The notes: a model not told the origin generated them from the letters alone. Counted from the first letter of the stretch, positions 3,135-46,815 are shown. The stretch: 64,000 nucleotides of DNA from Pseudomonadales bacterium (GCA_963663145.1 OY760134.1:256416-320415), one strand, 5' to 3'. Made by a program: numbers and translations.

Positions 3135-6100
3135 ATGAAGCCCGGTTCGCAAAAGTTAAGTACTTTTGCGGGCTGTAGCCTGCCTTTACTGCTGATCATC
3201 CTCGCTTGGCTTTGGGCGACACCCGTCTTGGCACAAAGCGTGACGCTGTCGACAGGCTATTCACCCACCGTGAAAACGGCGACCTTGACCATTTCCGGCC
3301 ACACGGCCGCTTGGTGGCACAAGAGCGACCAAACCAACGCCACCTGCGCTTCCGTCGCCGCCAATTCCTCAAGCGCGGATCTGACCAACCTGACCGGTGG
3401 CACCACCTATGTGTGGAAAGCCTATAGCGATAGCAGTTGCAGCACTGAGCTTGCAAGCACGACCTTCACCACCATTGCCGTCACCATTGATCAGGTCACC
3501 GCGACGACGGCGAGGCTGAACCTCAATCACAACACCCATCGGACTTGGTCTTACAAGCAGACATCGCCGACAAGCAGTCCTGCCCAAGCTTGCCAGCAAG
3601 ACTGGCTTTGGGCGTTTAATCCAGAAGATAGTCCGCAATCGCTGACCGGATTATCGCCGAGCTCAAGCTACACCTTTACCGTCTATTGGGGCGCCGGCTG
3701 TGCGGCCGGAAAAGAGGCCGAAGCTGTCGCCTTCACTACTTCCGCTGCCACGCTGGCGGTCAGCAGCATCACGACGACAACGGCGACCCTGACCATTTCC
3801 GACCATTCGAACATCGCTTGGTGGTACCAAGGGAACCAAAGTGGCGCGACCTGCACGTCTGTCGCCGCGAACACCCTGACCGCGAATCTGGCCGACCTGA
3901 CAGTGGGTACGGAATATACCTACAAGGCCTATCGTGCCTCGGGCTGCGCTGCGGCAAACGAGATCGCCAGCCGCACTTTCACCACCCTAGCCGGCCCCCC
4001 GAGCGCGCCTTCCAATCTGAGCTCAACAAAATCTTGGCGTCCCGCCAGTCTCCCTCCGAATCCCGTGCAATACCCGAGTGGGATTCGGGTGCGATTCTCA
4101 TGGACCTCGGGTGCGGACAACGGCGCGACGATCACAGGCACCGACCTGCGATACCGACGAACGAGTCCCGTGGGCAGCTGGCAGATCCAGAGGAACGCAC
4201 ATATAACCGAAGCAACCCTGACGTTTGTTTCGACCATCACCAATTTCGGCAAGGCGATGGAGTTCCAGGTCAAGGACGACAACTCCAAGGGGGCTGGCAC
4301 GTGGTCCGCGTCTTCGGCCTTTACGGTGGCGCTCGAGCCAGCCAAGCCCACCGCACCGTCAATTACCCCCGGCCACAAGCAGTTGGGCCTTTCTTGGACG
4401 GCACCCGACAGCCGCGGCGCGGACATCACCGGCTATGAGGTCCAATACCGCTTGGGCAGTTCCGGAGACTGGACCGACCATACGCACTCCGGTACCGGAA
4501 CGACAGCGACCATCACCGGCCTGAACATAGCGACCGCCTACCAGGTGTGGTTCAGAGCCACCAACTCCGAGGGAGATGGGGCATGGTCGGATGCCGCGTC
4601 CGCAACCACACTCGATAGGCCGGGCGAAGTCGCGGGCCTGACCGCCACCGCCGGCAGCGACGGGTCCATCGATCTGGACTGGACCGCCATAAGCGAGGCG
4701 GCAAGCTACAAGGCGCAGTACAAGTATGGTACCCAAGACTGGTCGGCGACGCGGCAGTCCACGGCGACCACCAACTCGCTCAACATTGCCCGCAGCTTAC
4801 TCACCGCGAACACTGCCCACTCCTTCCGGGTGGCGGCGACAAACGGCAGCGGCGATGGTCCCTGGTCCGACGAGGTGGTGGCGACGCCGGTGGACGTGAC
4901 ACTGCAGGCGAGTACTGTCGGGGCGGACAGCGCGACTCTCACGATCGGCAACTACAGTGGCACTTGGTATTACAAGCAGAGCGCGCCGACGGCCGGAACC
5001 TGCTCTAGCGGGGTGTCCACCGCATCAACGACTCTAAGCAGCCTATCGACCGGCCAGATCCACACCTTCAAGGCCTATAAGGACAGTCAATGCACGGGCG
5101 CCGTGCTTGCCACCGCGCCTCCATTCCTGACCAAGCCCGGCAAGGCGGCTGGCGTGACGGCCACCGCGGCCGCCGCCGCCCTCGACCTGAGCTGGACCGC
5201 GACCACTGGCGCGTCGGGCTACAAGGTGCAATGGAAGTCCGGCAGCGACGATTGGAGCGCCACCAGCCGGCAGACCACCTCGACCACCGCCTCGGCGACG
5301 ATTCCTTCACTGACCAACGGCACGATTTACACGGTGCGCGTGGCGGCGGTCAACGACGTCGGCGACGGCGTCTGGTCGGACACCGCCACGGGCACACCGT
5401 CCGGGAGCGTGCTGCGCTTGGCGGCGGGGACATCGACAGGCGGTGCGGTGATCAACATCTCGGGACATGCCGGAACCTGGTACTCGAAAGCTACCCCGCC
5501 CACGGACGCCACCTGCGAAACGAACAGTACCTCCACAAAATCCGTGACGGGCAAAAGCTCGGGCACCAGCTACACGATTACGGCCTACAGCGACTCGAAC
5601 TGCGCGACCCAACTCACGTCGCTCGGGTTCACCACCCTGCCCGCCAAGGTGACCGGCGTGACTGTTGTGGCGCGCGCCGCCTCGCTCGGTGTGAGCTGGA
5701 CGGCGGAAACCGGCAACGCCGCCACCAGCTACAAGGTGCAGTGGAAGTCCGGCGCACAGGGCTACGCCGCCAACCGCCAGGTCATCACCACCAAGACCCG
5801 TGCATCGCTGACCGGCCTCACCAACGCCACGCAGTACACCATCCGCGTGGCGGCAACGAATGCCGGCGGCCCCGGCTCGTGGTCCGACAACGCCACCGGC
5901 ACGCCTTCGGCGACGGCGGTCACGCTGACCGCTAGCGTGACCGCCAGCGGGGGTTCGTTCACCCTCGCCAACCATGCCGGAAATTGGTGGTACAAGATCA
6001 CCCCGCCAGCCACCGCGACCTGCAGCCAAGGCCCTTCCAGCAAAACGCTCGTCAGCTCCACCTTGAGTTCCGGCACTGAATACACGCTCGCGGCCTACAG

Positions 6101-9100
6101 CGATTCATCCTGCGCCACGAAGCTCACCTTACTGGACTTCCTCACCCTGCCCGCAAAGACGACCGGCGTGACACTCGCCAACCAAGGCGCGTCCCTGCGC
6201 GCGAGCTGGACAGCCGTGACCGGCGCATCGGGCTACAAGGTGCAGTGGAAGTCCGGCAACGAGAACTTCGGCACCACCCGGCAGACCACCTCCGCCACAA
6301 CCTCGGCGACGATTCCTTCGCTGACCAACGGCACGGCCTACAGCATGCGTGTGGCGGCGGTCAACGCCGCCGGCGACGGCGCTTGGTCGGACACGGCGAC
6401 CGCGACGCCTTCGGTCAAGCTGATCGCCAGCAAGGTCACCGCGACCGGCGCGAGGCTGACCCTGGCGGGCCACACCGGGAGCTGGTACGTCGCTGGCTAT
6501 CGCGGCAACACCACGGTCATCGCCTGTAGCCGGGTGGACGGCTCTTGGAAGGACGTGACCCTACAGGGAAACAGGAGCTACTATTACGCGGCGTTCAGCT
6601 CTTCAAGATGCGAAGAGCCGGTGCTGGCGGACACGAGCTTCACTACGCCGGGCGCGATCAAGCTGCTGGCCGACAACGTCACCAAGAGCTCGGTCGAACT
6701 GTACCTTTATGGCTACAACAAGCGCGCCGGGGATCCGGATGTCTGGTACAGCCTGCGGCCGGCGAGCGGCAGGGCCGTGGTGGGGTGCGGCCGTTGGGGC
6801 CGGTCGCAAATCATCGGCGTCAGCCCCCTGGGCGCTGGGCAAACCTACACCGCGGAGGCGTTCTGGGACAGGAATTGCTCGCCGGAGCAGCGGCTGTCGA
6901 GCGTGACCTTCACGGCGCTCACCGATGCGGATGGGCCGCGCCCGTCGCTGGCCGCATCGAACCTGACCAGCACCGGCGCGACGCTGACGCTGTCCAACCA
7001 CACCGGCAACTGGTGGTACCAGAAGGGCGTCAACGGCGCCTGCACCGCAGTGACCGGCGGCGCGACGAGCGTGCACGTCACGGGGCTGACACCCAATAAG
7101 GACCAAGTCTTCTGGGCGTGGAGCCAAGACGAATGCGACCAGGCCGACGAGTCGACCGAGTGGTACGCCACGGCGCACTTCACCACCCCCGGGACGGTGA
7201 GCGTGTCGGTGGGCGACAAGACATCCACGGGCTTCACGCTCACGCTGCGTGGCTACACCCAAGCCAACGGCTATCCGGACACTTGGGCGTTCAACGTGCT
7301 GCGCAAGGCAAGCAATGGCTACTGGGAGGGCAGCCTCTGCCGCACGCTGCCGCGCGCCACGGACACCGCAGCGGTCACGGGGCTGGAGGCTGGCAAGCAG
7401 TACACGATCAACATCTACAACAGCCCGACCTGCAACTTCGCGTCCACAATTGTCAGCGCGACGCCGGTGACCATGACGAGCATGGCCGCTGGCAGCGTCG
7501 GGCCCTCGTCGGCGACGCTGACGCTGGAGCACCACGAGGGCGCGTGGTCGTACAAGGGCGGCGAGGCATCGGGGCAGGGCGCCGGCGCATCCTCCTCGTC
7601 AGGCGCGGGACAATGCCGATCCGTGCCTGCGGGCACCTACACCGCCGAGCTCGACAACCTGAGCGCGGGCACCGACTACGCCTACACCGCCCACTTCGGC
7701 GGGAACTGCGCGGGCGGCGAAATCGCCGCAACGAGCTTTACCACGCCGCAGTCAGCGACACCCGGCGCACCTGACGAACTCGCGGCCACGGCCGGAAACG
7801 CGAGCATCGCTCTGACTTGGAACAAACCGTCGGATGCGAGCATCACGGGCTACGAATACCAAGTGAGCCGCAACGACACGAATGGCGGCAAACTCAACGT
7901 CTGGAGCGACTGGATGGCCATCGGCGGTGCCGGCGCGGACACCGTTCTGCATAATGTTTCTGGGCTGATCAACGGGCACGAGTACCGCTTCCGCCTCCGA
8001 GCAGTCAACGATGCTGGGACGGGCACGAGCGCCCCCGTGGCGGCACCCTATTATGTCTCGGCGATACCGGAAGCCGACAAGAGGCCGTCGCCGCCGGCGA
8101 CGCCAAACTCGGTCTCCGTGGCGCTCGGCGATGGTGTTTTGAAAGTTGCTTGGTCGGCCGTCGAGCGTGCGACGGGCTACCACATCACCTACAGTTCCGA
8201 CAACGGCGCAAGCTGGAAGCTCGCGGCGGAGAACCATGCCGACAAACGGATCGCGATCTCCGGGGTGGACAACGCGCTCACATACATCGTCGGGGTGCGC
8301 GCCGTGAACGAGTACGGAAAAAGCGGCTGGACCAACTCGTCGCCCGTCGGACCCTTTTCCCCCGGGTCGCCGGAAAAGCCGGTCGAGGTGTGGGTCCTGT
8401 GCGGCGACGGCACTCTGAAGGTCTTCTGGTCGGCTGTCGAAGGCGCGACGGACTATCACATCACCTACAGCTCCGACCACGGGGCGAACTGGCACTTGGC
8501 GGCGCTGAATCATCCAACCAAAACCATCGAGATTGCGGGAATCGACAAGGCACTGACCTACATCGTCGGTGTGCGGGCGCGTAACAGGCACGGGTACGGT
8601 GGCTGGACCAACTCACGGCGCGCCGGGCCCTGCTCCGACGACGGCGCTTGGACGACGGGCGCGGGCATGGGCCCGTCCGGGGCGGCGGTGTCGCCGGTGC
8701 CGAACCTCGTGCCGAGCTTCGCAGGCGATGTCATCGTGCCCGATGCGTCCTCTTGGAAACAGAACACGCCCATCGAGCCGGTCACATTGCCCCGTGCCCA
8801 AGGCGGGAACGGGACGCCGATCTACTCGCTGTCGCCGGAGCTGCCGCAGGGACTCAGCTTCGATCCGGCCACACGGCTGCTGTCCGGCACACCCGCCGAG
8901 GCGCTTGAAGAGACCATGTACACTTATTCGGCAGCAGATGCCGACGGCGACGCGGCGGAGTTGACCTTCGCCGTCCGCGTGGCCGCGGACCTCGCGCCGG
9001 GCTTCGCCAACGCGGAGCCAATTTCGCTGCGCCTTGAGCAGTACAATGCCATGGATCCCCTGACGCTGCCGGAGGCGCGCGGCGGCGATGGGGAACTGCA

Positions 9101-10784
9101 TTACGAACTCTTGGGCGCGCTGCCCTGGGGGCTGGCATTCGACGCCGCCACGCGCACCCTGTCCGGCACGCCGATGGAGGTGTCTGCCGGGGCGAGCCTC
9201 AAATACCGAGTGGTGGATTCGGATGCGGTGGCGCCGGATTCGCACAGCTTGGCCATCGGGGTCGAGGTCGGGGTGTCGGCCGCGGACGCGGCGGCGCTGG
9301 AGGGGGCGCTGGCGGCGCAGGGCCGGGCGCTGTTGTCGGGCGCGGCCGGGGTGATCGGGGCGCGCCTGCGCGGCGTGGACGACGGTCAGGGCGGCGAGGG
9401 GTTGACGGAGGCTCTGTCGCGGGCGCTGTCGCAATTGGGCGCTGGGGGCGTCGGAGGCATGATCGACGTCGGCATTGAATTCGACGGTGCCTACGGGCCG
9501 ACCGCGGCGGACGATCTTACGGATAAAGGTGTGGTCATGCAAAGTGGTTCGCTCGGCGACGGCATGCCGCCGACGGATATGGGCGGCGGAGCGTCGCCGG
9601 GCATGCCGCGAAACCTCTCCTTCGCGCTGCCGTTCGGCGGCTCCGGGAACCCGGACGCTTGGATGCTCTGGGGCGCATCGGCAGAGCAGGGCTTCGACGG
9701 GGGTTCGGGTGCATCAGACTTCGATGGCAGGCTGTCCTCGGTCTACCTCGGCGCCGACGGACGGATCGGGGAAAACCTCATGGTCGGGGCGGCGCTCTCG
9801 CGCGGCGCCGGCCGGACGGATTACGACACCGGAACCGCTGGCGGCGCACCCGGTCGGCTCGACACCGAGATCCTCTCGGTGCATCCCTACATCCGCGGCC
9901 GACTCGCGTCGGGCTTCGAACTCTGGGCGTTGGGCGGCTACGGAAGCGGCGAACTCAAGAGCGAACGCGAACTTGAGGGGGCGTCGGCGGAGACGGCCGA
10001 CCTCTCGATGCGCATGGCCGCGGCAGGCCTTAGACGGAGCTTGAAGCCGCGCGGGCGCTTCGAACTCGCGCTGGTCGGCGGAGCGGGACATCTCAACCTG
10101 TCCACCGGGTCCGGCCAGCGGGCGGTTGACGGGCTTGAAACGGACGTGTCGCAGCTGCGCCTCGCGCTCGAAGTCTCGGCAGGCGGTGCGCTGTCGCCCC
10201 ACATCCAAGTGGGGACGCGCGCCGACGAGGTCGGGGGTCGAACCGACACTGGCCTCGAGGTGGTCGGAGGACTGCGCCACTCCGGCGAGCGGCTCGACTT
10301 CGAAGCGCTGGCGCGTTGGCTGTCCACTGGCTCGGACGACGGCGGGGGTTACGAGGAGTACGGGGGCAGCCTGCGGCTGACCCTGAAGGCGCTGCCGGAC
10401 GGCACCGGCCTGCGGTTCGGCCTGGCGCCGAGCTGGGGCCGCGCGGGCGTCGCCGGCGGACTCCTGGGCGGCGGGCGGTACGACATGTTCTCCGCGGCGA
10501 ACCAAGCGTTCGCCATGCCCGGTGCCGGTCAACGCCCCGCGCCGTCAATGGCGCTGGAAAGCGACCTCGGCTACGGCCTTGCGACGCGGCACGGATTGCT
10601 GGTGCTCGGCGGCGGCCACCGCCGCGACGCCTTCGGCGCCGCCGAACGCTACGGCTTCACCTGGGAGTCGGTGGGCGACGCGGACACCGGCTGGAACACC
10701 CGCCTGAGACTCGACTGGCACCCCGCCACCGGCACCACCGAAGCCGGCTGCGCCTTCGAACTCACTTGGCGCCGCGAGTTCTAA
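3135..10784 (+). CDS. Giant (2,549 aa) surface protein: signal peptide, two-Cys modules, FN3 repeats, He_PIG/Ig-like repeats and a C-terminal autotransporter (type Va) beta-barrel
   Basis: A single 7,650-nt ORF with SD GGAGAG 7 nt upstream and a signal peptide (LLLIILAWLWATPVLAQS). It contains 11 two-Cys ~85-aa modules. It has 9 canonical fibronectin-III repeats (e.g. LSWTA..GYKVQWKSG..Y.VRVAAVN..GDG.WS). It has 2 He_PIG/cadherin-like repeats (PIYSLSPELPQGLSFDPATRLLSGTP; LHYELLGALPWGLAFDAATRTLSGTP). A Gly/Ala linker precedes a ~380-aa beta-barrel ending ELTWRREF. Confidence 0.85.
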   Translation: MKPGSQKLSTFAGCSLPLLLIILAWLWATPVLAQSVTLSTGYSPTVKTATLTISGHTAAWWHKSDQTNATCASVAANSSSADLTNLTGGTTYVWKAYSDSSCSTELASTTFTTIAVTIDQVTATTARLNLNHNTHRTWSYKQTSPTSSPAQACQQDWLWAFNPEDSPQSLTGLSPSSSYTFTVYWGAGCAAGKEAEAVAFTTSAATLAVSSITTTTATLTISDHSNIAWWYQGNQSGATCTSVAANTLTANLADLTVGTEYTYKAYRASGCAAANEIASRTFTTLAGPPSAPSNLSSTKSWRPASLPPNPVQYPSGIRVRFSWTSGADNGATITGTDLRYRRTSPVGSWQIQRNAHITEATLTFVSTITNFGKAMEFQVKDDNSKGAGTWSASSAFTVALEPAKPTAPSITPGHKQLGLSWTAPDSRGADITGYEVQYRLGSSGDWTDHTHSGTGTTATITGLNIATAYQVWFRATNSEGDGAWSDAASATTLDRPGEVAGLTATAGSDGSIDLDWTAISEAASYKAQYKYGTQDWSATRQSTATTNSLNIARSLLTANTAHSFRVAATNGSGDGPWSDEVVATPVDVTLQASTVGADSATLTIGNYSGTWYYKQSAPTAGTCSSGVSTASTTLSSLSTGQIHTFKAYKDSQCTGAVLATAPPFLTKPGKAAGVTATAAAAALDLSWTATTGASGYKVQWKSGSDDWSATSRQTTSTTASATIPSLTNGTIYTVRVAAVNDVGDGVWSDTATGTPSGSVLRLAAGTSTGGAVINISGHAGTWYSKATPPTDATCETNSTSTKSVTGKSSGTSYTITAYSDSNCATQLTSLGFTTLPAKVTGVTVVARAASLGVSWTAETGNAATSYKVQWKSGAQGYAANRQVITTKTRASLTGLTNATQYTIRVAATNAGGPGSWSDNATGTPSATAVTLTASVTASGGSFTLANHAGNWWYKITPPATATCSQGPSSKTLVSSTLSSGTEYTLAAYSDSSCATKLTLLDFLTLPAKTTGVTLANQGASLRASWTAVTGASGYKVQWKSGNENFGTTRQTTSATTSATIPSLTNGTAYSMRVAAVNAAGDGAWSDTATATPSVKLIASKVTATGARLTLAGHTGSWYVAGYRGNTTVIACSRVDGSWKDVTLQGNRSYYYAAFSSSRCEEPVLADTSFTTPGAIKLLADNVTKSSVELYLYGYNKRAGDPDVWYSLRPASGRAVVGCGRWGRSQIIGVSPLGAGQTYTAEAFWDRNCSPEQRLSSVTFTALTDADGPRPSLAASNLTSTGATLTLSNHTGNWWYQKGVNGACTAVTGGATSVHVTGLTPNKDQVFWAWSQDECDQADESTEWYATAHFTTPGTVSVSVGDKTSTGFTLTLRGYTQANGYPDTWAFNVLRKASNGYWEGSLCRTLPRATDTAAVTGLEAGKQYTINIYNSPTCNFASTIVSATPVTMTSMAAGSVGPSSATLTLEHHEGAWSYKGGEASGQGAGASSSSGAGQCRSVPAGTYTAELDNLSAGTDYAYTAHFGGNCAGGEIAATSFTTPQSATPGAPDELAATAGNASIALTWNKPSDASITGYEYQVSRNDTNGGKLNVWSDWMAIGGAGADTVLHNVSGLINGHEYRFRLRAVNDAGTGTSAPVAAPYYVSAIPEADKRPSPPATPNSVSVALGDGVLKVAWSAVERATGYHITYSSDNGASWKLAAENHADKRIAISGVDNALTYIVGVRAVNEYGKSGWTNSSPVGPFSPGSPEKPVEVWVLCGDGTLKVFWSAVEGATDYHITYSSDHGANWHLAALNHPTKTIEIAGIDKALTYIVGVRARNRHGYGGWTNSRRAGPCSDDGAWTTGAGMGPSGAAVSPVPNLVPSFAGDVIVPDASSWKQNTPIEPVTLPRAQGGNGTPIYSLSPELPQGLSFDPATRLLSGTPAEALEETMYTYSAADADGDAAELTFAVRVAADLAPGFANAEPISLRLEQYNAMDPLTLPEARGGDGELHYELLGALPWGLAFDAATRTLSGTPMEVSAGASLKYRVVDSDAVAPDSHSLAIGVEVGVSAADAAALEGALAAQGRALLSGAAGVIGARLRGVDDGQGGEGLTEALSRALSQLGAGGVGGMIDVGIEFDGAYGPTAADDLTDKGVVMQSGSLGDGMPPTDMGGGASPGMPRNLSFALPFGGSGNPDAWMLWGASAEQGFDGGSGASDFDGRLSSVYLGADGRIGENLMVGAALSRGAGRTDYDTGTAGGAPGRLDTEILSVHPYIRGRLASGFELWALGGYGSGELKSERELEGASAETADLSMRMAAAGLRRSLKPRGRFELALVGGAGHLNLSTGSGQRAVDGLETDVSQLRLALEVSAGGALSPHIQVGTRADEVGGRTDTGLEVVGGLRHSGERLDFEALARWLSTGSDDGGGYEEYGGSLRLTLKALPDGTGLRFGLAPSWGRAGVAGGLLGGGRYDMFSAANQAFAMPGAGQRPAPSMALESDLGYGLATRHGLLVLGGGHRRDAFGAAERYGFTWESVGDADTGWNTRLRLDWHPATGTTEAGCAFELTWRREF
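3237..7746 (+). repeat. Intragenic array of 11 two-cysteine modules interleaved with FN3 repeats (coding repeats)
   Basis: The recurrent pattern is TLT(I/L).(G/N)H.G.W(W/Y)YK....(A/T)C...25-40 aa...(T/Y)Y...AY(S/K)DS.C......F(T)T. A strictly alternating module/FN3 block spans about 4890-6640. Confidence 0.6.
9615..10784 (+). other. Autotransporter-type beta-barrel translocator domain of the giant protein
   Basis: Alternating amphipathic strands are visible (SSVYLGADGRIGENLMVGAALSRG, ILSVHPYIRGRL, ELWALGGYGSGEL, LRLALEVSAG, GGSLRLTLKA). The terminal aromatic F is typical of OMP/autotransporter C-termini. Confidence 0.7.
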
Positions 10785-10915: not shown

Positions 10916-11033
10916 ACGAAACTTGATTGGCGGCGCATACTTCGGCTGTCCCTTCACCCCAAGTTGCAAATGAACCTCCTTGTCAGCGAGCCTCGTCAAG
11001 GCTGTCGCATCAGATCGGTACGCGGATCACACC

Positions 11034-12437
11034 ATGGCTAATTTCATTGGCCGCCGTTCGGAACTCAATGTGCTTGAGGCGGCATTCGCGTCCGGGCGCT
11101 CCGAGTGTATTCCAGTGTTCGGCAGACGTCGGGTTGGCAAGAGCGAACTCATCTTGAAGTTCATGAGGGGCAAGCCCGGTGTCTATTATCTCGGCGGGCA
11201 ATCACCGAGCAGCCTGCAAGTGCGCGAGTTTCTTGTGGAAGCGGCGCGCACGCTGAACATGCCGCTGCTGGCTGAACTCGGCGTCAGCGATTGGCGCAAG
11301 GCGCTGACAACCGTTGTCGATCAGTGGGCACTCACGCATCCGGATTCGAAACTGGTGTTGGCTCTGGATGAGTTCCAGTGGATCGCCGCATCTGAGCCCG
11401 GCCTTGTCGCAGACTTGCAGCATTGTTGGGACCGCCACTGGAAAACTACCGGCAGTGTGCTGTTGTTGCTTTCCGGTTCCTATATCGGTTTCATGGAACG
11501 TGAGGTGTTGGGTCAATCGAGCCCGCTCTTTGGTCGCCGCACGGCGCAAATCCATCTGCGTCCGTTCGGTTACCTGGAAGCCGCCGAATTTCACCCGAAT
11601 TGGTCACTCCATGACCGAGCGCGCGCCTACTTTCTGGTGGGCGGACTGCCGCAGTATCTGCTCTGCCTCAATGACCGCCTTTCCGTTCATAGCAACATTC
11701 GCCAAAACCTACTCAACGAATATGCGCCGCTCTTTCATGAACCCACGTTTCTGCTGCGAGAAGAACTGCGCGAGATCGCGCCCTACCACGCCATTTTGTT
11801 CGCGATTGCCGGTGGGAGGCGCACCGTGCGTGCGATCGCCAAGGCCACCGGCCTGCCGGATCGCAACCTGCATTACTATTTGCGGCAACTGGTCGATTTG
11901 GGATATGTGCAACGGTGCTACCCGCTCGATGGCCAACGAGCAAATCCGAAGCAGTTGCGTTTCGTGATCCGCGCCCCATTGCTCAGGTTCTGGTTCCGGT
12001 TCGTGTTCCCCAACAGCAGCATCATCCGCAGCGCCGGCGCTTCCCGCGCGTTCACCGAGCGTATCGCACCCTCGCTTGATGCTTGGTTTGGCAGCGGATT
12101 CGAACACCTCTGTCGCGAGGCCCTGCCGCTCATCTATGCGCACGAGGGCGTGGGCGCAGGTTTCGAGGTTGGTGAATACTGGAGTCCAACGACACAAATC
12201 GACACCGTAGGCCTGCGCGACGACAATTGGACGGACTTGGGCGAATGCAAATGGGGAACGGTGCGGTCGCCGGTCGCGTTGGAAGCGGAACTTGAGCGCA
12301 AGACAGGGTTGTTTTCGAACAATCGTGGTGCGACTCTGGGGCGCCGGTATTTTGTGCGCCGCAAGCCAACCGGACGAAAAGAGGCGCCCAACTGGTATGG
12401 GCTGGACGACCTCTACGCACTGGAGGCGGGTTCCTGA
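11034..12437 (+). CDS. P-loop ATPase (archaeal-ATPase/DUF234 type) with wHTH and a PD-(D/E)xK-like C-terminal domain
   Basis: Walker A is FGRRRVGKSE and Walker B is LVLALDEFQ. The wHTH-like segment is RTVRAIAKATGLPDRNLHYYLRQLVDLGYV. The C-terminal IDTVGL...LGECKWG has a D...ExK pattern. The ORF track starts at TTG 10980. ATG 11034 (MANFIGRRSEL) fits family N-termini better. Confidence 0.8.
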   Translation: MANFIGRRSELNVLEAAFASGRSECIPVFGRRRVGKSELILKFMRGKPGVYYLGGQSPSSLQVREFLVEAARTLNMPLLAELGVSDWRKALTTVVDQWALTHPDSKLVLALDEFQWIAASEPGLVADLQHCWDRHWKTTGSVLLLLSGSYIGFMEREVLGQSSPLFGRRTAQIHLRPFGYLEAAEFHPNWSLHDRARAYFLVGGLPQYLLCLNDRLSVHSNIRQNLLNEYAPLFHEPTFLLREELREIAPYHAILFAIAGGRRTVRAIAKATGLPDRNLHYYLRQLVDLGYVQRCYPLDGQRANPKQLRFVIRAPLLRFWFRFVFPNSSIIRSAGASRAFTERIAPSLDAWFGSGFEHLCREALPLIYAHEGVGAGFEVGEYWSPTTQIDTVGLRDDNWTDLGECKWGTVRSPVALEAELERKTGLFSNNRGATLGRRYFVRRKPTGRKEAPNWYGLDDLYALEAGS

Positions 12438-12512
12438 GGCAGCGAAAGAAGCGAATCAAGACTGACTTCCTGTCAGCGCGTTTGCACCTTGTGATGATGT
12501 CTAGTGCCGCTG

Positions 12513-13913
12513 TCAGGAACTGAGAATTTCCTTCACGATGTCTGGCAGGCGCTCGACAAGATAGAGCGGCAGGGACAGCAGAGGGTAGTGGACTTGATGG
12601 GAGGAGTCTTTGATGCGTACCGCCGCCTGCACTTTCTGTAGGCTTGGTGGAGAGGCATCAAATCGAACTGCCAAGGCCGGTTCCTTCTCCGCCACGAACT
12701 GGTGCAGTGATTTGAGGGTGCCAACACGGCCTGCCTTAACCTCTATTGGCACAATCTGCCCCCCCAGTTCGACCACGTAGTCCACTTCTGCGTTGTTGGA
12801 GCGTCCCTCGCGCAGCCAGTATGTGAGCTCGCGATTGGGTCGCCGGGCAAGCAGGTATTGAAGGTGCTGACCGATGAATTGTTCGGCGCTGGTGCCAGCG
12901 TTCACCAAATCGGTGGTTCCAGCGGCCTGAATCGTTTCCCACCCGACGCCGCAGATCGCGTTCATCAGCCCAACGTCTAGAAAAAGCAGCTTAAAGACGT
13001 TCTCTTTGCAGTCGGCCTGCAGTGGCAGGCCGGAACAGGCGCTGTGCGTTACCTTTGAAGCAACCCGAGCCATGGTCAACAGCTCGATGTCGCGGCGAAT
13101 GGTTGCGCTCTGATCGTTTGGCGATATGTTGCTGAACTTCACCTTGCGGCCGGGCTGGCGGGCTGCAAAGTTGAAAACGCGCAGCATCCGGGTCATGTCG
13201 CGGCGCGCGGCATATTTCGGAAAGTCATCGCGATAGGTGTCAACTATGTTGGCGTGAACGTCGCTGACGTCTCGCAGACTACCGGAATCAGCGAACACAC
13301 ATACGGCTTCGGGCATGCCTCCGATATATTGATACAGGCGGAGATGTTGCAAGAGCTGCTCATGGATTATTGCCGGGATCGAGGCGCCGCTGCCGGTGCG
13401 CCACTCGAACTGATCGATGGTGCGGGCGAGCCTGCCCTTGCCGATGCCATTCAGTAACTCCGTGAAGGTCATCGGCCCAACCTGGAGGGAGTCCACCCGG
13501 CCCACGGGCATGGAAAACGCGTGGTCCGCCAGCGCAAACTCCATAAGCGAACTGGCGGCTATGACGGGTTGCTGGGGCATTTCCTCAAAAAAATACCGCA
13601 ACGAAGCGATCGCCGCCGGCACGGCCTGAATCTCGTCAAGGAAGAGAATGCCTTCAGCCGACAATGGCGTATCGAGAGCACTATGGAGCATGTCTAGAAT
13701 GGCCTTTGGATCGTTGCAGGCAAACACCTCACCAAGGTGTGGATGCCGTTCCAGATTAATCGCGGACAGGCTGCTGCCTTCTTGTTTGGCGAGCAATTCC
13801 ACCAGGGTGGATTTACCGACCTGCCGCGCCCCGCGAATTACCAGCGGCTTGCGCCGCCGGGAGTGCAGCCAAGTGCGAAGGTCTGTCGATTGATGTCGGT
13901 CCATGCGGCGCAA
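12513..13913 (-). CDS. AAA-type ATPase (AAA_14 + DUF4143 architecture, COG1373-like)
   Basis: Walker A is RGARQVGKST and Walker B is ILFLDEIQ. The C-terminal AEVDYVVELGGQIVPIEVKAG has a PD-(D/E)xK-like D...ExK pattern. The gene is convergent with the preceding ATPase gene across a 75-bp gap. Confidence 0.85.
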   Translation of the reverse strand: MRRMDRHQSTDLRTWLHSRRRKPLVIRGARQVGKSTLVELLAKQEGSSLSAINLERHPHLGEVFACNDPKAILDMLHSALDTPLSAEGILFLDEIQAVPAAIASLRYFFEEMPQQPVIAASSLMEFALADHAFSMPVGRVDSLQVGPMTFTELLNGIGKGRLARTIDQFEWRTGSGASIPAIIHEQLLQHLRLYQYIGGMPEAVCVFADSGSLRDVSDVHANIVDTYRDDFPKYAARRDMTRMLRVFNFAARQPGRKVKFSNISPNDQSATIRRDIELLTMARVASKVTHSACSGLPLQADCKENVFKLLFLDVGLMNAICGVGWETIQAAGTTDLVNAGTSAEQFIGQHLQYLLARRPNRELTYWLREGRSNNAEVDYVVELGGQIVPIEVKAGRVGTLKSLHQFVAEKEPALAVRFDASPPSLQKVQAAVRIKDSSHQVHYPLLSLPLYLVERLPDIVKEILSS

Positions 13914-15258: not shown

Positions 15259-16177
15259 CTATTCCACCTCACGCACCTTGATGGACATTGGCAGGGTCTT
15301 GCCATAGACATCCGCATCGTACATCTCCGCGGCTTCGGCGGAACGAACATGAAAGCGGCCGGAAGCTATGGCTTGCGCGGTGTAGCTGAGGTGATAGCGA
15401 CCGGCGGAGAGATAGTCGGAGTAAAAGCGAACCGAGTCGTGACACATCTCGCGGTGATAAAAGCTCCATCGCGGCGCGCCGTAAGACACCCAATCGGAAA
15501 AGTCGAACCACCATGAGCCGCCCGCAGCGGTGAAGCTGCCTTCTGCGGCGTCAACAGCGGAACTGGTCGCCAAGTCCCTGTTGACGGGTTCAAGACCGCC
15601 GGGCACATGATCGTCCACCAACACAAAATGCCTTGCGGTGGGAAGATTGAGAAAGAGATCGACCCTGACGAGTTCTCCCCGCTCAATGACGGCATCGCCC
15701 GAGAGCTTGCGCCATTCGCCATCTCGAAGGACGGCGTACTCGCGGCGGAGATCCATTCCGGCATTCACCCGCTCAAGATTGTTTGATTTGGGCGCATAGG
15801 CAAGACGGGTTGCATAGTGCAGTCGGCCCTGGCCTTCGCGCCTGATGATGACCTCCGACCGATTGCCCGGATGGCTGGCAAGGATAGGAGTGGAGAATTC
15901 CTGTGCCGGATTGCTCGTGGCCGTGAATTCACCGGCACCCATGCGCGTGTTGTCAAGCAAGACCTCGAACTTCATTTCGGGATTGGCCTCTTCCCATCGC
16001 CTCGCGTAGTCGATCAACGCGTTCATGCAGAACACGTTTTCTTGGGTGTTCTCCCAATGATCACGGTTGTCCCGCGCCTGTGTGGTGGCGCGCGCGAGGC
16101 GTGAGGCGAGCTGATCAAACCCATCGTTGCCGTGGATTTTGGTAAGGGCGGACAGCACAGAAGTGGCCCCGGAAATT
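15259..16177 (-). pseudogene. C-terminal ~305-codon fragment of a bacterial alpha-2-macroglobulin (YfhM-like) gene, truncated by the IS3-family element
   Basis: The sequence (RWEEANPEMKFEVLLDN.., LHYATRLAYAP.., FVLVDDHVPGGLEPVN, SFYHREMCHDSVRFYSDYLSAGRYHLSY) matches the receptor-binding/C-terminal end of 1,500-1,900-aa bacterial A2M proteins. The frame is open up to the IS inverted repeat at 16178, and the N-terminal >1,200 codons are absent. Confidence 0.75.
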
Positions 16178-16224
16178 TGAACAACACGTTAAGGTGTGGC
16201 CAATCGGCATAGGAGCCCATTGGC

Positions 16225-16473
16225 ATGGCGAAAAGGGAGCAGTAGTCGGCGGAGTTCAAAGCGAAGGTGGCGGTCTCGGCGATCCGCTACAAGATCCATC
16301 CGAACATGATCACCAAGTGGAAGCGCGAAGCGCGGGAAGGCATGAAGGACCGCTTCGCCCGCGGCGGCAAATCGAGCCAGGGCGATCACCAGGCGGAACT
16401 CGAGGAACTGCGCGCCAAGATTGGCGAGTTGGTGGTGGAACGGGATTTTTTGCAGCGCGCCTTCGATCGATGA
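16225..16473 (+). pseudogene. IS3-family orfA (HTH protein) with an in-frame TAG at codon 7 and an apparent internal deletion
   Basis: After SD AGGAG it reads ATG GCG AAA AGG GAG CAG TAG, then TCG GCG GAG TTC AAA GCG... (MAKREQ*SAEFKAKVAVSAIRYKIHPNMITKWKRE...). Family members read REQYSAEFKAKVALEA(10-14 aa of HTH)..HPN.I..WK. Confidence 0.65.
16446..16452 (+). other. Candidate -1 programmed frameshift heptamer T TTT TTG at the orfA/orfB overlap
   Basis: It has the X XXY YYZ form in the orfA frame (GAT TTT TTG). orfB is in the -1 frame relative to orfA, and the site lies 20 nt before the orfA stop. Confidence 0.45.
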
Positions 16474-17315
16474 GCGTCGAGCGAAGGCGAGAGATGGTGG
16501 GGCGGGAGCGCCACAAGCTCAGCTTGAGCCGGCGGTGCCGGCTGCCCGGCATCAGCCGCGGCAGCCTGTGCTGCCGGCCGAGGGGCGAGTCGCAAAAGAA
16601 TCTGGCGCTGATGCGCCGGATCGACGAGCAGTCCCTGAAGACCCCGTGGCACGGCGCCCGGCAGATGGCGCGCACCTTGCGTCGGCAAGGACATCCGGTG
16701 GGCCGCAAACGCGTGGGCCGGCTGATGCGGCTGATGGGTCTGCGTTCGCTGGCGCCGGGGCCCGACACCGGCCGCAAGCACCCGACGCATCCGATCTGCC
16801 CTTACCTGCTCAGGGACCGCCGTATCGACGCGCCCAACCAGGTCTGGTGCGATGATGTCACCTACATTCCACTGGCGCACGGCTTTGTGTATCTGGTGGC
16901 GATCATGGACTGGCACACGCGCCACGTGCTGTCGTGGCAACTGTCGATCACCCAGGAGGCGAGTTTCTGCCTGGACGCGCTGGACGCCGCCCTGGAGCGC
17001 TATGGCAAGCCGGAGATCTTCAACACCGACGAAGGCAGCCAATTCACCAGCCGGGATTGGACGGACACGCTGGAAGCGTCCGGCATTCGGATCTCCATGG
17101 ATGGCAAAGGCCGCTGGCTGGACAACGTATTCATCGAGCGGCTGTGGCGCTCGCTCAAGCAGGAGTGCGTCTACCTCAATGCCTTCGACTCGGTACGCGA
17201 CTGCCAGGCCAGCATCAGCGCGTGGATGGAGTATTACAATCGAGAACGCACACACTCGAGCCTCGGCGACCTCACGCCCAGCGAGGCGTGCGAAACGTGG
17301 CGGGAAGCCGCATGA
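16470..17315 (+). CDS. IS3-family transposase orfB (DDE integrase core)
   Basis: The rve-type catalytic core is present: NQVWCDDVTYIP (D), IFNTDEGSQFTS (D), NVFIERLWRSLKQE (E). ATG 16470 overlaps the orfA stop (ATGA). The upstream extension of the ORF to 16194 is just the open -1 frame. Confidence 0.85.
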   Translation: MSVERRREMVGRERHKLSLSRRCRLPGISRGSLCCRPRGESQKNLALMRRIDEQSLKTPWHGARQMARTLRRQGHPVGRKRVGRLMRLMGLRSLAPGPDTGRKHPTHPICPYLLRDRRIDAPNQVWCDDVTYIPLAHGFVYLVAIMDWHTRHVLSWQLSITQEASFCLDALDAALERYGKPEIFNTDEGSQFTSRDWTDTLEASGIRISMDGKGRWLDNVFIERLWRSLKQECVYLNAFDSVRDCQASISAWMEYYNRERTHSSLGDLTPSEACETWREAA

Positions 17316-30261: not shown

Positions 30262-30337
30262 TGGTGGGTCGTCTGGGGCTCGAACCCAGGGCCCACGGGT
30301 TAAAAGCCCGTTGCTCTACCGACTGAGCTAACGACCC
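30262..30337 (-). tRNA. tRNA-Lys (anticodon UUU), CCA encoded
   Basis: Hand-folded cloverleaf: acceptor GGGTCGT/ACGACCC, D stem GCTC/GAGC, anticodon stem ACGGG/CCCGT with loop CTTTTAA, T stem CTGGG/CCCAG with loop TTCGAGC. Total 76 nt. Confidence 0.95.
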
Positions 30338-31908: not shown

Positions 31909-33432
31909 ATGCGGCGAAAAACTGCGGGCTACAATGCCGTGTCCGCAGATAAGGGCGGCCTGTTGGCCGAAGCAGTCTTGATTATTCTCAGCATCCTTAT
32001 TTTCTATAGTATCGCCCTGCTCGGGATAGGTGCATGGGCCAAGTCGCGGAATCGATCCGAAAAGGACTTCTTCGTAGGCGGCAGGCAACTTGGGCCTTGG
32101 GTTGCCGGGCTTTCCTACGCGGCGAGCACATCATCCGCGTGGGCGCTGTTGGGGTTCACTGGATTCGTGTACGCGCTTGGGCTGTCGGCCTTGTGGATCG
32201 TCCCTGGTATCTGGATTGGATACGCCGTGGTGTGGTTGGTGATGGGCCCGAGGCTGCATGCCGAGTCGCACCAACAGGATTACGTCACACCCACCGACTT
32301 TGTGCTCGGTAAGGGTGGCGGGGCGGCCCGAAACCGCACCGCGATTCTGGCTTCGACCTTGATTTCGATTTGTTTTATCTTTTACATCGCCGCGCAATTT
32401 GACGCGGCGGGAAAGGCGTTTATCGAGCATTTTCCGATCGATCTCGCGCAGGCGGTGGTGATTGGCGCCGCGATCATTCTCGTCTACTCCTTTATTGGCG
32501 GGTTCTGGGCGGTGAGTGTCACCGATACGGTGCAGGCCATCGTCATGCTCGTCGTCGCTCTGATGGTCGGTTGCATGGCTGTCATTGAACTCGGCGGCGT
32601 GGGCGACATGATCGACACCCTCAGAGAGATCGCGCCTGCGGGGTACTTGCGCATCAGCGGAGAATACGCCGGCCTCATCCTGTTCGGGTTCATCGCCGGC
32701 ACGCTCGGCATCACCCTGGGCGCGTTTGGGCAACCGCAATTGCTTGTGCGGCTCATGGCCGTTAGGGATGAACGTTCGCGCCGACAGGGTTTTTTCATCG
32801 TGCTCACTTGGGGCGTGCTCATCTATATTGGATTGTCGTTTCTTGGATTGGCCGGACGCGCGCTCTTTCCGGCCATGCCGGATGGCGAAGCCTTGCTCTA
32901 CACGGCTGCCGATCAACTCTTGCCCACCCTGCTCGCTGGCATCGCCGTCGCCGCGACCCTCTCCGCAGTCATGTCCACCGCGGACTCGATCCTCCTTTCC
33001 GCTTCCGCCGCCCTCGCCCACGACACCGGGCTCAATCGGCGCTTTCCGGGTCGGGAATTGCTGGCTTCGCGTCTTTCGGTCTTGGCGATCACCGTGCTGG
33101 CCGTAGTCTTGACCCTCATGTTGCCGGACACCATCTTCAACCGGGTGCTCTTCGCTTGGTCCGCGCTGGGTGCCGCCTTCGGGCCGATCATGTTTTTCCG
33201 GGTGTTCGGAGGGCAGGTTTCCATGGGTGCCGCGGCACTGACCATGTTGCTTGGTTTCGGCTTTACGCTGCTGTTCTATTCAGCGGGTACGGTGGCTGGA
33301 CCGAGCGACAACCTCATCGTCCAGCTCGCCAAACTCCCCGGCGACCCATTTGAACGATTATTCCCTTGGCTCCCCGGCCTCGCAGTCTTGTTCGCTTCTC
33401 GGATGATCAATCGGCGCGTTGCGGAGCGTTGA
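31909..33432 (+). CDS. Sodium:solute symporter (SSS) family transporter
   Basis: KDFFVGGRQLGPWVAGLSYAASTSSAWALLGFTGFVY and ~13 TM segments fit the SSS family. Substrate is not inferable, and the exact start is uncertain. Confidence 0.85.
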   Translation: MRRKTAGYNAVSADKGGLLAEAVLIILSILIFYSIALLGIGAWAKSRNRSEKDFFVGGRQLGPWVAGLSYAASTSSAWALLGFTGFVYALGLSALWIVPGIWIGYAVVWLVMGPRLHAESHQQDYVTPTDFVLGKGGGAARNRTAILASTLISICFIFYIAAQFDAAGKAFIEHFPIDLAQAVVIGAAIILVYSFIGGFWAVSVTDTVQAIVMLVVALMVGCMAVIELGGVGDMIDTLREIAPAGYLRISGEYAGLILFGFIAGTLGITLGAFGQPQLLVRLMAVRDERSRRQGFFIVLTWGVLIYIGLSFLGLAGRALFPAMPDGEALLYTAADQLLPTLLAGIAVAATLSAVMSTADSILLSASAALAHDTGLNRRFPGRELLASRLSVLAITVLAVVLTLMLPDTIFNRVLFAWSALGAAFGPIMFFRVFGGQVSMGAAALTMLLGFGFTLLFYSAGTVAGPSDNLIVQLAKLPGDPFERLFPWLPGLAVLFASRMINRRVAER

Positions 33433-42393: not shown

Positions 42394-43281
42394 TCACTCG
42401 CCGCTACTGCGGTATTTCTCATTCAAGCTCCAGAGTATCGCAAGCGTCTCGACATCAGGTTCTCCGGAATAGCCGCTGGGACGAAAACGAAGTTGCATGG
42501 CGCGAACGGCAAAGCGCGTCTGATTGTCAAGTTCACCTGTTGTTCTCACCTGATAGCCGAGTCTCAATAGGGCGGTCTGCAGCTTCTCAATTGATGGCGG
42601 CTCGGTTGCGAATTGCGACTCGAAGCGCGCCTTGGCTTCTTGCTCATACCAAGCGCCGATGCCTGCCTCGTACAGCCGCTGCCAGGGGAACAGCGGACCA
42701 GGGTCCGACCTGTACGGGATCACAATATCGGAGTGGGCGACCACGTCGAGTGGGGCGATGTTGGGATGGCGTTGCAAAATCCCGTGGAGCAACTCGATGA
42801 CCATGTCGATTTGCGCTTCGCTGAACGGCAGGAAATTACATTGCACCGAATCGAGTGGGCTGTCCGGACTCGTATTCGCAGCCTCCTCACAACGGAATTC
42901 ATTCACGATTTCTATGCCAATCGAGCGGCTGTTCAGTGCCGTTATTCCCGCCCAGTAGCTGGGGCCCGCATGCCATGCTGCTCGATCTTCATCGACGAAC
43001 TGATGCAAGCGAAGACTGCGGTGATTGTAGGTGGGGTCGCCTTCGGCGGGAATCAGATAGTGCGAGCTGACCGGGCGGTCAGTCCGAGTTGTGAGCAATC
43101 TCACCGATTCGGCGAAATCTTCGGAGGTGGCATGAATCACAACATGGTCCACCCGACTGCTGTGATTGGTCGATTCGATGATGACCGTGTCTGTGCAGGC
43201 GACCAGCAACCACGGGAGAATAAGCACTTGCAGTTTTTTCGCCCAGCGAATGCCGTTGCTAGTGACGGTAGTGAATCTCAT
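42394..43281 (-). CDS. N-acetylmuramoyl-L-alanine amidase lipoprotein (AmiD/AmpD fold) with a C-terminal peptidoglycan-binding domain
   Basis: It has the lipobox LLVAC and Amidase_2 motifs (VVIHATSE, SSHYLIP, AWHAG, SIGIEIVN). It also has a PG_binding_1-like C-terminus (LQTALLRLGYQVRTTGELDNQTRFAVRAMQ). Confidence 0.85.
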   Translation of the reverse strand: MRFTTVTSNGIRWAKKLQVLILPWLLVACTDTVIIESTNHSSRVDHVVIHATSEDFAESVRLLTTRTDRPVSSHYLIPAEGDPTYNHRSLRLHQFVDEDRAAWHAGPSYWAGITALNSRSIGIEIVNEFRCEEAANTSPDSPLDSVQCNFLPFSEAQIDMVIELLHGILQRHPNIAPLDVVAHSDIVIPYRSDPGPLFPWQRLYEAGIGAWYEQEAKARFESQFATEPPSIEKLQTALLRLGYQVRTTGELDNQTRFAVRAMQLRFRPSGYSGEPDVETLAILWSLNEKYRSSGE

Positions 43282-43397
43282 GGTGACCTTCTCCTCTGAC
43301 GTTCATATGCAAAAGCCTTAGTATGCGCGATTGCTGGGCAGAGCGTGAGAAGGAAAAACTTGCCCGCAGCTTCAGTCCCGACGAAATGGAGGTCACT

Positions 43398-45594: not shown

Positions 45595-46749
45595 ATGTTC
45601 TTCGAACGCTTAATCCAGCGCCCGCTTGATGCGCACAAGAGTTTCTTCCTGTTCGGCCCCCGCGGAACGGGAAAAACCACTTGGCTCAAGCGCAAATTGC
45701 CGAATGCCTTGTTTGTGGATCTTCTGCAATCGGAGTTCTATCTGCCGCTGACCGCCAACCCTGGGTTGCTCAGCGAACTCATTCCTTGGAGATACCATGA
45801 TTGGGTGGTCATTGACGAAATCCAACGAATTCCGCAACTCTTAAATGAAGTGCACCATCTGATCGAAAGTCGCGGGTTGGCGTTCATATTGACAGGCTCA
45901 AGTGCGCGTAGTCTGCGGCGCAAAGGGGTCAACTTACTGGCCGGACGCGCCCTGACCTACCATTTGCACCCCCTTACCGTCCAAGAGCAGCGTGCGCAGT
46001 TCTCTCTGCACGATTCGCTACGTCTTGGCCACCTGCCCGCCAGATTCAGCGAAGCCGACGCGGAAAAGTACCTGCAGGATTACGTGCACACCTATTTGCG
46101 CGAAGAGGTTATGCAGGAAGGACTTACGCGCAATATCGGGCATTTCTCGCGCTTTCTCGAAGTAGCAAGTTTCTCTCAGGGGTCTGTCCTCAACCTAAGC
46201 AACGTCGCCCGCGAAGCGCAAATTGAGCGGCACCTCGCCGAGAGTTACTTTTCCATTCTCGAAGACCTGCTCATCGCGGTGCGTCTGCCGGTGTTCAGTC
46301 GCAAGGCCAAACGCCAGATCGTTTCGAAAATGAAGTTCTACTTGTTCGATGTTGGTGTGTTCAGGGCCATACGTCCACACGGGCCGTTGGACTCGGAAGC
46401 GGATATGGGCGGACCGGCACTGGAAACGCTAGTGCTACAGGAAGCGCTCGCACTCAACGAATACGGTGGATACGACTACCAATTTCACTTTTGGCGCACC
46501 CGTAGCGGCATGGAGGTAGACTTCGTACTCTATGGTGCGCGTGGACTGATCGCGATCGAAATCAAGCGCGCACGGCAGGTCCACAGCCGGGACACCAGAG
46601 CACTACGTGAATTCAAGAAGGACTACCCCGCTGCCCGGTGTTTCCTCTTCTACGGCGGATCCCTTCCGTTGCATCAAGAGGATGTCTCGGTCCTGCCCAT
46701 CGAGTACGCACTGCTCAACTTGGACAGCATTCTGCGCAACCAAGATTGA
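45595..46749 (+). CDS. AAA-type ATPase (AAA_14 + DUF4143), paralogous architecture to 12513..13913
   Basis: Walker A is GPRGTGKTT and Walker B is WVVIDEIQ. The C-terminal GMEVDFVLYGARGLIAIEIKRA has a D...ExK pattern. It is preceded by an AT-rich 240-bp intergenic region. Confidence 0.85.
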   Translation: MFFERLIQRPLDAHKSFFLFGPRGTGKTTWLKRKLPNALFVDLLQSEFYLPLTANPGLLSELIPWRYHDWVVIDEIQRIPQLLNEVHHLIESRGLAFILTGSSARSLRRKGVNLLAGRALTYHLHPLTVQEQRAQFSLHDSLRLGHLPARFSEADAEKYLQDYVHTYLREEVMQEGLTRNIGHFSRFLEVASFSQGSVLNLSNVAREAQIERHLAESYFSILEDLLIAVRLPVFSRKAKRQIVSKMKFYLFDVGVFRAIRPHGPLDSEADMGGPALETLVLQEALALNEYGGYDYQFHFWRTRSGMEVDFVLYGARGLIAIEIKRARQVHSRDTRALREFKKDYPAARCFLFYGGSLPLHQEDVSVLPIEYALLNLDSILRNQD

Positions 46750-46815
46750 CTAAGCACGGGCGCTCACCCTGCTACCATTCGAGTTTTCCGCGCATCCCAG
46801 TAGAAGGAGTCGATC

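Follow-up and report, generated by a model that had tools for sequence, protein, structure and literature searches.

A putative autotransporter passenger built from fibronectin type III-fold modules with an invariant cysteine pair

Passengers of type V secretion systems are generally poor in cysteine, and the cysteines they contain are closely spaced (PMC8151025). How, then, might a protein with eleven widely spaced cysteine pairs serve as an autotransporter passenger? The question is raised by a 64,000-nucleotide stretch of DNA from a Pseudomonadales bacterium (GCA_963663145.1 OY760134.1:256416-320415; the whole stretch is called the window below), in which a single, intact open reading frame (ORF) at 3135-10784 on the plus strand encodes 2549 amino acids (aa). 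A first-pass annotation of the window had noted eleven copies of a two-cysteine module that might be an undescribed domain resembling fibronectin type III (FN3), and had called the cysteines paradoxical for an autotransporter. We consider it probable that the protein carries eleven disulfide-stapled modules of an FN3 subfamily in a passenger free of beta-helix, mounted on a type Va-like barrel, and that it is exported by Sec and then in the C-to-N direction.

A search of the protein with a hidden Markov model (HMM) of the copies gives exactly 11 full-length modules (M1 to M11) of ~80 aa each, spanning aa 35-1538 or nt 3237-7748, in agreement with the eleven copies first placed at 3237-7746; its matches tile aa 35-285, 587-667, 758-835, 927-1005 and 1093-1538. 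Alignment of the 11 copies with MAFFT gives the consensus xxxLxAxxVTxxxATLTLxxHxGxWxYK...C...LxxGxxYTxxAYxxSxC...FTT, in which W26, C37 and C68 are invariant, and the signature quoted earlier is readily recognized in it (TLTIxxHxGxWWYK ... C ... YTYKAYSDSxC ... FTT). The strict alternation of modules with FN3 domains that had been described for 4890-6640 is present as well (Table 1). The protein has 26 cysteines, 22 of which form 11 consecutive pairs, one to each module as had been stated (71/102, 153/189, 240/271, 623/653, 794/823, 963/993, 1131/1159, 1218/1248, 1303/1334, 1402/1433 and 1494/1525). The members of a pair lie 28-36 residues apart, which corrects the 30-45 residues given at first; similarly, the earlier figure of 22 paired passenger cysteines is right for the modules and incomplete for the passenger, which has 24, the additional two being C1756 in the last FN3 block and C1833 just beyond it (nt 8631-8633). 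Cys14 lies inside the signal peptide. The window copies are 21-57% identical to one another as proteins, and there is no tandem repeat at the DNA level. Because of this lack of nucleotide-level repetition we rejected a recent duplication or an assembly artefact as the source of the array; judged by their sequences, the copies are old.

An exhaustive hmmsearch of 1.84 billion cluster representatives with the 11-copy profile recovered 1443 representatives at E ≤ 1e-3, 1066 at E ≤ 1e-10 and 553 at E ≤ 1e-30, with up to 34-35 module copies per protein. The exhaustive search was needed, since a word-indexed homology search with the same profile returned one fragment only. Recovery on this scale, at thresholds as strict as 1e-30, places the repeat, as a sequence pattern, far beyond chance. 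From the best 150 family proteins we took 1304 near-full-length modules, and all 1304 have exactly two cysteines, spaced 24-40 residues apart with a mode of 30-31; conservation is also strong at W26, Y58, A62 and Y63 and in the S-D-S-x-C motif. The relatives found all lack a name and come from metagenome-assembled genomes (MAGs) in ENA or NCBI, and it is probably because they sit in such unannotated genomes that the module has no Pfam family.

To what fold does the module belong? Modelled with AlphaFold2 from a 56-sequence alignment of window copies and homologues, M3 gave a pLDDT of 96.9 and a pTM of 0.84, with very high confidence in the loops; a single-sequence model of M9-M10 was unusable (pLDDT 48). 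The M3 model has seven strands (A 3-7, B 14-19, C 26-29, C' 38-40, E 46-49, F 57-63 and G 73-80), and its best 50 Foldseek matches in the PDB are all FN3 domains (Tencon, monobodies, Dscam, tenascin), with a probability of 1.00 and TMq values of 0.61-0.76, mostly 0.69-0.76. Against PDB sequences, the 11-copy profile matched only FN3 domains and FN3-derived scaffolds (fibronectin, monobodies, Tencon/Centyrin), through the E-F motif at profile positions 39-64 (best E 7e-8); L52, Y58, Y60 and Y63 are 63-92% or more conserved in the module family. Since the strands of the M3 model and its Foldseek matches all point to FN3, the module is, on this modelled structure, an FN3-fold domain that forms a distinct sequence subfamily, and not a new fold.

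Comparison with FN3 proper (PF00041, E-set clan; Tencon, Centyrin, monobody) reveals several shared features: firstly, the seven-strand beta-sandwich, with a TM of about 0.75; secondly, the E-F motif LtgL-x-x-g-T-x-Y-t-h-x-a with its Tyr-rich F strand; thirdly, the length class and the tandem, beads-on-a-string use. The module departs from FN3 in its invariant cysteine pair (at the start of C' and in the FG loop), its conserved WWYK C strand and its AYSDSxC motif, in a C-C'-E segment that is shorter by about five residues, in the replacement of the B-strand Trp by H, Y or W one position along, and in that single copies fall under the PF00041 cut-off, a gathering threshold of 25 bits. When the window copies were scanned singly in Pfam, three of the 11 gave weak fn3 matches (best E 0.0025) and three gave Pur_ac_phosph_N, all far under cut-off; of 56 family copies, five matched fn3 (best E 0.00028), 11 Pur_ac_phosph_N and eight Ig_7, again all sub-threshold. 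No Pfam-A or NCBIfam model reached its cut-off on a single module among these 11 window and 56 family copies, and NCBIfam gave nothing in the region. When the module profile was compared by hhalign with FN3 domains of this protein, just the E-F motif could be aligned, with probabilities of 3% and 11%; profiles as shallow as these do not make a useful test of homology. The suspicion of an undescribed FN3-like domain has thus held up: the model and Foldseek give the FN3 fold, the relatives are unnamed, and the copies do not score as ordinary fn3 in these libraries.

A plainer reading is that the modules are ordinary FN3 domains whose two cysteines are a lineage quirk, kept reduced, with no disulfide and with nothing special about their secretion. 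It agrees with the fold and with nearest sequence matches that are plain FN3, and some family proteins sum to above-threshold fn3 scores (P0076, for example, at 73.6 bits). We nonetheless find it unlikely: both cysteines occur in every one of the 1304 copies, among paralogues of 21-57% identity and across several phyla, with neither lost alone, and the canonical FN3 domains of the same protein have no such pair.

We asked what the positions of the two cysteines say about a bond between them. In the M3 model Cys37 lies just before strand C' and Cys68 in the FG loop, within A-Y-S-D-S-x-C. Mean-field direct-coupling analysis of 1249 unique modules (Neff about 1000) recovers the sheet registers (C/F at i+j=88, C/C' at about 66-68, F/G at 137). 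It also reveals a very strong direct coupling between W27, which points outward from strand C, and D65, the second FG-loop residue, and a coupling of K61 with residue 71; because of these two couplings, the FG loop is placed on the outer face of the sheet. The residues that flank the cysteine pair couple too (36-66 at 0.94 and 38-69 at 0.66, where the 95th percentile is 0.56). The score for Cys37-Cys68 itself and others among invariant columns are pseudocount artefacts, and several couplings at columns 72 and 73 are an indel effect and not contacts. Cysteine invariance of such degree is, at the sequence level, typical of a structural disulfide in an exported domain, and together these data make an intradomain Cys37-Cys68 disulfide likely.

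Three points weigh against this assignment: the coupling between the two cysteines is uninformative, both columns being invariant; in textbook FN3 the tip of the FG loop does not lie next to the start of C', so that the disulfide needs an FG loop folded back over the sheet; and the evidence for this fold-back consists of couplings, two of them weak. The same geometry lends something to the idea that the cysteines act between modules, in inter-domain or inter-molecular disulfides or in a shared metal site that would lock the rod or cross-link fibres. In a canonical FN3 domain the FG loop is at the N-terminal pole and looks towards the CC'/EF pole of the domain before it, so that the FG-loop cysteine of one module might, for example, join the C'-start cysteine of the module before it, and no folded-back loop, as intradomain adjacency would require, need be assumed. 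This is very unlikely, in our view, given that M4, M5 and M6 keep both cysteines though each has Cys-free canonical FN3 domains as neighbours on either side, that single-copy modules elsewhere (P0160, P0176) retain both, that loop confidence is very high in a model of a single domain, and that couplings 36-66 and 38-69 are intradomain.

If the two cysteines of each module bond within the domain, as we favour, they would pin the FG loop to C', and the loop would cover, as a flap, the Trp/Tyr of strand C that is conserved and exposed, on the outer face of the C'CFG sheet. Stapled in this way, each bead would be stiffer and, outside the cell, better able to resist unfolding and proteolysis. By our own alignment, W27 and C37 are equivalent to what we take to be R33 and E47 of 10Fn3. 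In monobody "side" libraries those 10Fn3 positions form one surface with the FG loop, and the staple would pin the loop to the C/C' face that these libraries use. Should the staple prove true, the module would offer a natural disulfide-stapled FN3 scaffold for protein engineering.

The assignment of the protein to the autotransporters had been part of the first-pass annotation and is supported. Over profile positions 9-116 of 255, PF03797 matches the C-terminal ~390 aa with 38.4 and 39.2 bits (cut-off 26), a family HMM of the beta-domain scores 516 bits on the window protein, and the last residue is Phe (...RREF). Homologues of the beta-domain, at 41-49% identity, bear passengers with He_PIG, FN3, LRR, Calx-beta or cadherin domains, and four of them carry a precomputed PF03797. 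Envelope genes for TolB, a TolA-like protein, TolQ, CpoB, Lgt and a TonB-dependent receptor lie in the window, which also encodes RuvAB and PtsP. Because of the Tol-Pal, Lgt and TonB-dependent receptor genes, the host is, by its gene content, a diderm proteobacterium, and this fits the Pseudomonadales MAGs that hold the closest relatives.

No solved autotransporter barrel in the PDB matched the beta-domain at E ≤ 1, either by phmmer or with a 6-sequence profile, so that by sequence it belongs to a divergent branch of autotransporter barrels. This lack of a solved counterpart weighs against a type Va assignment, as does the extent of the PF03797 match, which is confined to the first ~40% of that profile; taken with a passenger that has neither beta-helix nor autochaperone, both would also suit some other anchor or a porin-like barrel, with repeats that reach the surface otherwise or stay periplasmic. 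That reading seems to us quite unlikely, for PF03797 is over its curated cut-off in the window protein and precomputed in the four homologues, and the order of signal peptide, passenger and barrel ending in F or W is that of type Va and is kept in 22 independent clusters. These 22, among the best 150 family representatives (clusters at ≤50% identity), combine 5-34 modules with the same beta-domain; P0002, for instance, has 34 modules in 5891 aa. Cysteine spacing in beta-domain-linked modules has a median of 31 (range 28-35, n=186), equal to the median of 31 in other contexts (n=1070). The combination of module and autotransporter barrel thus appears, on the sequences collected here, to be recurrent and not a one-off, and because 22 of 150 representatives share the layout and the spacing, this beta-domain clade would routinely handle passengers with 10-68 regularly paired cysteines.

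How does the protein compare with known classes? With type Va autotransporters (Pet, EspP, pertactin, AIDA-I) it shares an N-terminal signal peptide, a C-terminal PF03797 domain, an aromatic last residue and a single polypeptide. More than 90% of solved autotransporter passengers are beta-helical (PMC9289746), whereas this passenger has no beta-helix and consists instead of 22 small beta-sandwich domains (11 modules, nine canonical FN3 and two He_PIG), with 24 cysteines and 11 loops of 28-36 residues. Pfam fn3 sums to 256 bits over nine stretches across the whole protein; a Pfam scan gave no pertactin, PATR, autochaperone or beta-helix signal in the passenger, all of which is taken up by fn3, Cys modules and He_PIG. 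Inverse autotransporters (type Ve: intimin, invasin) resemble it in their rod of tandem Ig-like domains, for which sequential folding at the surface has been proposed (PMC3781032, PMC8151025). Their barrel, however, is N-terminal and their passenger C-terminal, the opposite of the order found here, and their Big domains are not FN3; neither the translation nor Pfam gave a barrel-like region after the signal peptide of the window protein, which does not have the type Ve layout. The chlamydial Pmp proteins are classical autotransporters with unusually Cys-rich passengers (PMC8151025), but these are made of GGA(I,L,V)/FxxN beta-helical repeats and not of FN3 domains, and their cysteines do not form one regular pair per domain.

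Can such a passenger cross the outer membrane with its disulfides? In the case of Pet, according to the passage of PMC10269718 that cites Leyton 2011, disulfide loops of more than 20 residues block translocation unless dsbA is removed, and against this the 11 loops of ~30 residues found here are a difficulty for the export we propose. Other substrates do pass: single-domain antibodies are translocated and displayed by the IgAP and EhaA beta-domains with their DsbA-made Ig disulfide, intimin is displayed with its DsbA-made disulfide formed (PMC3781032), and the chlamydial Pmp autotransporters have up to 18 cysteines, their periplasmic handling being an open matter (PMC8151025). Because of these precedents the paradox is overstated and only partial: the rule of Cys-poor passengers and the Pet loop limit are real, and oxidised Ig domains, intimin and the Cys-rich Pmps get through.

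As all pairs are consecutive, oxidation by DsbA in the periplasm and oxidation after export would alike give native pairing with no isomerase. We slightly favour, with low confidence, sequential folding and oxidation at the surface: after Sec export, the chain would pass from C to N through a BamA/barrel assembly, and each small domain would fold in turn at the cell surface, as proposed for the Ig domains of intimin and invasin. As a variant of this scheme, DsbA might oxidise the modules in the periplasm first, and this beta-domain clade, with BamA, might export pre-folded FN3 beads of ~2.5 nm, which implies a barrel more permissive than the Pet and EspP models. Consecutive pairs are the default pattern of DsbA, IgAP and EhaA export DsbA-oxidised Ig domains (PMC3781032), the loops of autotransporter-linked modules are no shorter than others (median 31 in both groups), and 22 clusters, with as many as 34 modules, share the architecture. 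The Pet precedent speaks against export of pre-oxidised beads, the timing of oxidation cannot be read from sequence, and no dsb gene is present among the window ORFs scanned; we regard this variant as possible though not the one to expect. By either route the outcome would be 22 beta-sandwich beads on a string, held in the outer membrane by a type Va-like beta-barrel, and the protein, to judge from its domains, would most likely be a long surface adhesin or spacer fibre. Passengers of this kind would be natural type V substrates with 11-34 regular Cys loops of ~30 residues and no beta-helix. They provide a handle on the degree of folding or oxidation that a passenger can have during outer-membrane passage, and on whether the sequential folding of small beta-sandwiches can replace the stacking of a beta-helix as driving force.

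We also examined where the module family occurs. A pattern scan of GTDB species representatives, for which a tight 8-sequence alignment was used, placed module-bearing MAGs in at least eight lineages (Pseudomonadales, Dehalococcoidia/Chloroflexota, Acidimicrobiales, Thermoanaerobaculia, Binatia, Thermodesulfobacteriota, Paracoccaceae and Alphaproteobacteria). The partner domains in other members are LRR, Calx-beta, He_PIG and cadherin, and some members have C-terminal SLH anchors. Anchors would thus differ by lineage, proteobacteria using the autotransporter barrel and other lineages SLH domains, and the module family would be common to many unrelated lineages of one metagenome type, presumably a sponge-type consortium. 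The mix of taxa resembles a high-microbial-abundance sponge consortium; taxonomic make-up alone suggests this host-associated origin, which is a point against leaning on it. Eukaryotic-like proteins with FN3 and LRR domains are enriched in phylogenetically diverse sponge symbionts, and a role in host interaction has been proposed for them (PMC3977351). The module family resembles such repeat proteins (FN3, LRR, cadherin, ankyrin) in its co-occurrence with LRR, Calx-beta, He_PIG and cadherin, and probably also in the lineages of its MAGs, which appear typical of such consortia. Surveys of sponge symbionts, by contrast, count Pfam fn3 matches, a model that the Cys-FN3 subfamily mostly escapes.

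One relative bears directly on the spread of the module. On a 690-kb contig (ENA ERZ21830300, L040 10001-13763), a gene is, over its first ~500 residues, 74% and 65% identical in amino acids to aa 35-529 of the window protein; the shared part comprises M1-M3 and the canonical FN3 that follows, beyond which the gene diverges into Calx-beta domains. The gene adjoins a DDE transposase, and because Psb28, GUN4 and a photosystem reaction-centre gene are on the same contig, it is apparently cyanobacterial. Identity of 65-74% on such a contig, beside a transposase, suggests from sequence comparison that the module cassette has been exchanged across phyla. A broader proposal, which we put forward as doubtful, is that the beta-domain clade is specialised for long arrays (5-34) of stapled FN3 beads, in breach of Pet's ~20-residue limit, and that the module is a horizontally traded adhesin block among the Gram-negative, cyanobacterial, Chloroflexota and Actinobacteriota members of one sponge-type consortium, fitted in each to the envelope's own anchor.

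Other members of the family showed further features. The closest partial orthologue of the window protein (54-57% aa identity; 79% nt identity over 1.9 kb) is on a 137-kb contig of the same assembly (ENA ERZ21830300, L001 10001-16131) and is broken into several short called genes, through long-read frameshift errors or as a decaying copy. In some family proteins the Cys-FN3 module is combined with beta-propeller-like repeats of the form GIWSDGTTMWV-D...KIYAY (P0005, P0160, P0162, P0169), and in P0044, P0076 and P0080 modules are interleaved with a ~190-aa domain that has a C-x-x-x-G-C motif.

The protein remains a probable FN3-based adhesin carried by an autotransporter barrel, both of known kinds; what appears new, from the sequences, is a probably disulfide-stapled FN3 subfamily for which no dedicated model exists, and a type Va passenger that is Cys-rich and beta-helix-free. 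Pfam and NCBIfam all but miss a family of more than 1400 representative clusters in unannotated MAGs. With a model made for it, many giant surface proteins now called hypothetical would be re-annotated, and the counts of eukaryotic-like FN3 proteins in symbiont genomics would shift.

The layout of the window protein is given in Table 1.

Table 1. Features of the predicted autotransporter gene, in window coordinates
Feature	Position	Strand	Residues, basis and remarks
Sec-type signal peptide	3135..3233	+	aa 1-33, cleavage after VLA; read from translation
Cys-FN3 modules M1, M2, M3 in tandem	3237..3989	+	aa 35-285; HMM envelopes, Cys pairs 71/102, 153/189, 240/271
Three canonical FN3 domains	3993..4889	+	aa 287-585; Pfam fn3 and alignment
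Strictly alternating block M4-FN3-M5-FN3-M6-FN3-M7	4893..6650	+	aa 587-1172; Pfam, Cys pairs, HMM
Cys-FN3 modules M8-M11 in tandem	6654..7748	+	aa 1174-1538; alignment and HMM
Three canonical FN3 domains	7749..8624	+	aa 1539-1830; Pfam; includes non-module C1756
Two He_PIG putative Ig-like domains	8682..9284	+	about aa 1850-2050; PF05345, 58.8 bits, 2 stretches
Conserved helix-like motif (LEGALAAQGRALLSGAAGVIGARLR), then Gly-rich low-complexity linker	9285..9602	+	motif kept in homologues P0182-P0194
C-terminal outer-membrane beta-domain, divergent Autotransporter PF03797	9603..10784	+	aa 2157-2549; Pfam; ends ...TWRREF

The signal peptide, read by eye from the translation, begins MKPGSQK and has a basic n-region, then the hydrophobic core LPLLLIILAWLWATPVLA, and then an A-x-A-like site (VLA|QS). 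We rejected a lipobox at FAGC (residues 11-14), because the hydrophobic core comes after the cysteine and not before it. Module M2 has an insertion after its first cysteine, and M8-M11, the most divergent window copies, have longer BC and CC' loops. The motif at aa 2051-2075 (window 9285-9360) reads A-x-L-x-D/G-x-L-A-A-Q-G-R-A-L-L-S-G-A-x-x-V-I-G-x-R-F-R and is strongly conserved in P0182-P0194; in all relatives it stands before a variable Gly-rich spacer, ~100 aa upstream of the barrel, which makes it a candidate linker helix or autochaperone substitute. GC content at third codon positions (GC3) is 0.82 in the autotransporter gene as a whole and 0.89 in M8-M11, compared with 0.56-0.71 in ten neighbour genes, while the M1-M3 part is host-like at 0.705. 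This contrast suggests that the gene is, in its base composition, mosaic or horizontally acquired.

Elsewhere in the window, three ATPase genes of the AAA_14/DUF4143 and ATPase_2/DUF234 types (10980-13913 and 45595-46749), two of which directly follow the autotransporter gene, may be the sign of a variable region. A 299-aa ORF within 15259-17315 consists only of the C-terminal MG10 domain of a bacterial alpha-2-macroglobulin and adjoins an ORF for an IS-type integrase (rve); by its sequence, it looks like a gene truncated by an insertion sequence. Two sizeable ORFs that have no Pfam match and a nearby C-5 cytosine DNA methylase (43278-44093, 46750-47910 and 48596-49618) may belong to a restriction-modification or mobile region. 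The segment 30389-38393 holds a proteobacterial cluster of cpoB (TolA_bind_tri and TPR), tolB, a tolA-like gene (TonB_2), tolQ, ruvB and ruvA, with a Na+/solute symporter gene between cpoB and tolB (31909-33432, plus strand), and a tRNA-Lys(ttt) lies at 30262-30337. The TonB-dependent receptor gene at 55003-57141 has a GC content of 0.50 and a GC3 of 0.56, markedly lower than the rest of the window.

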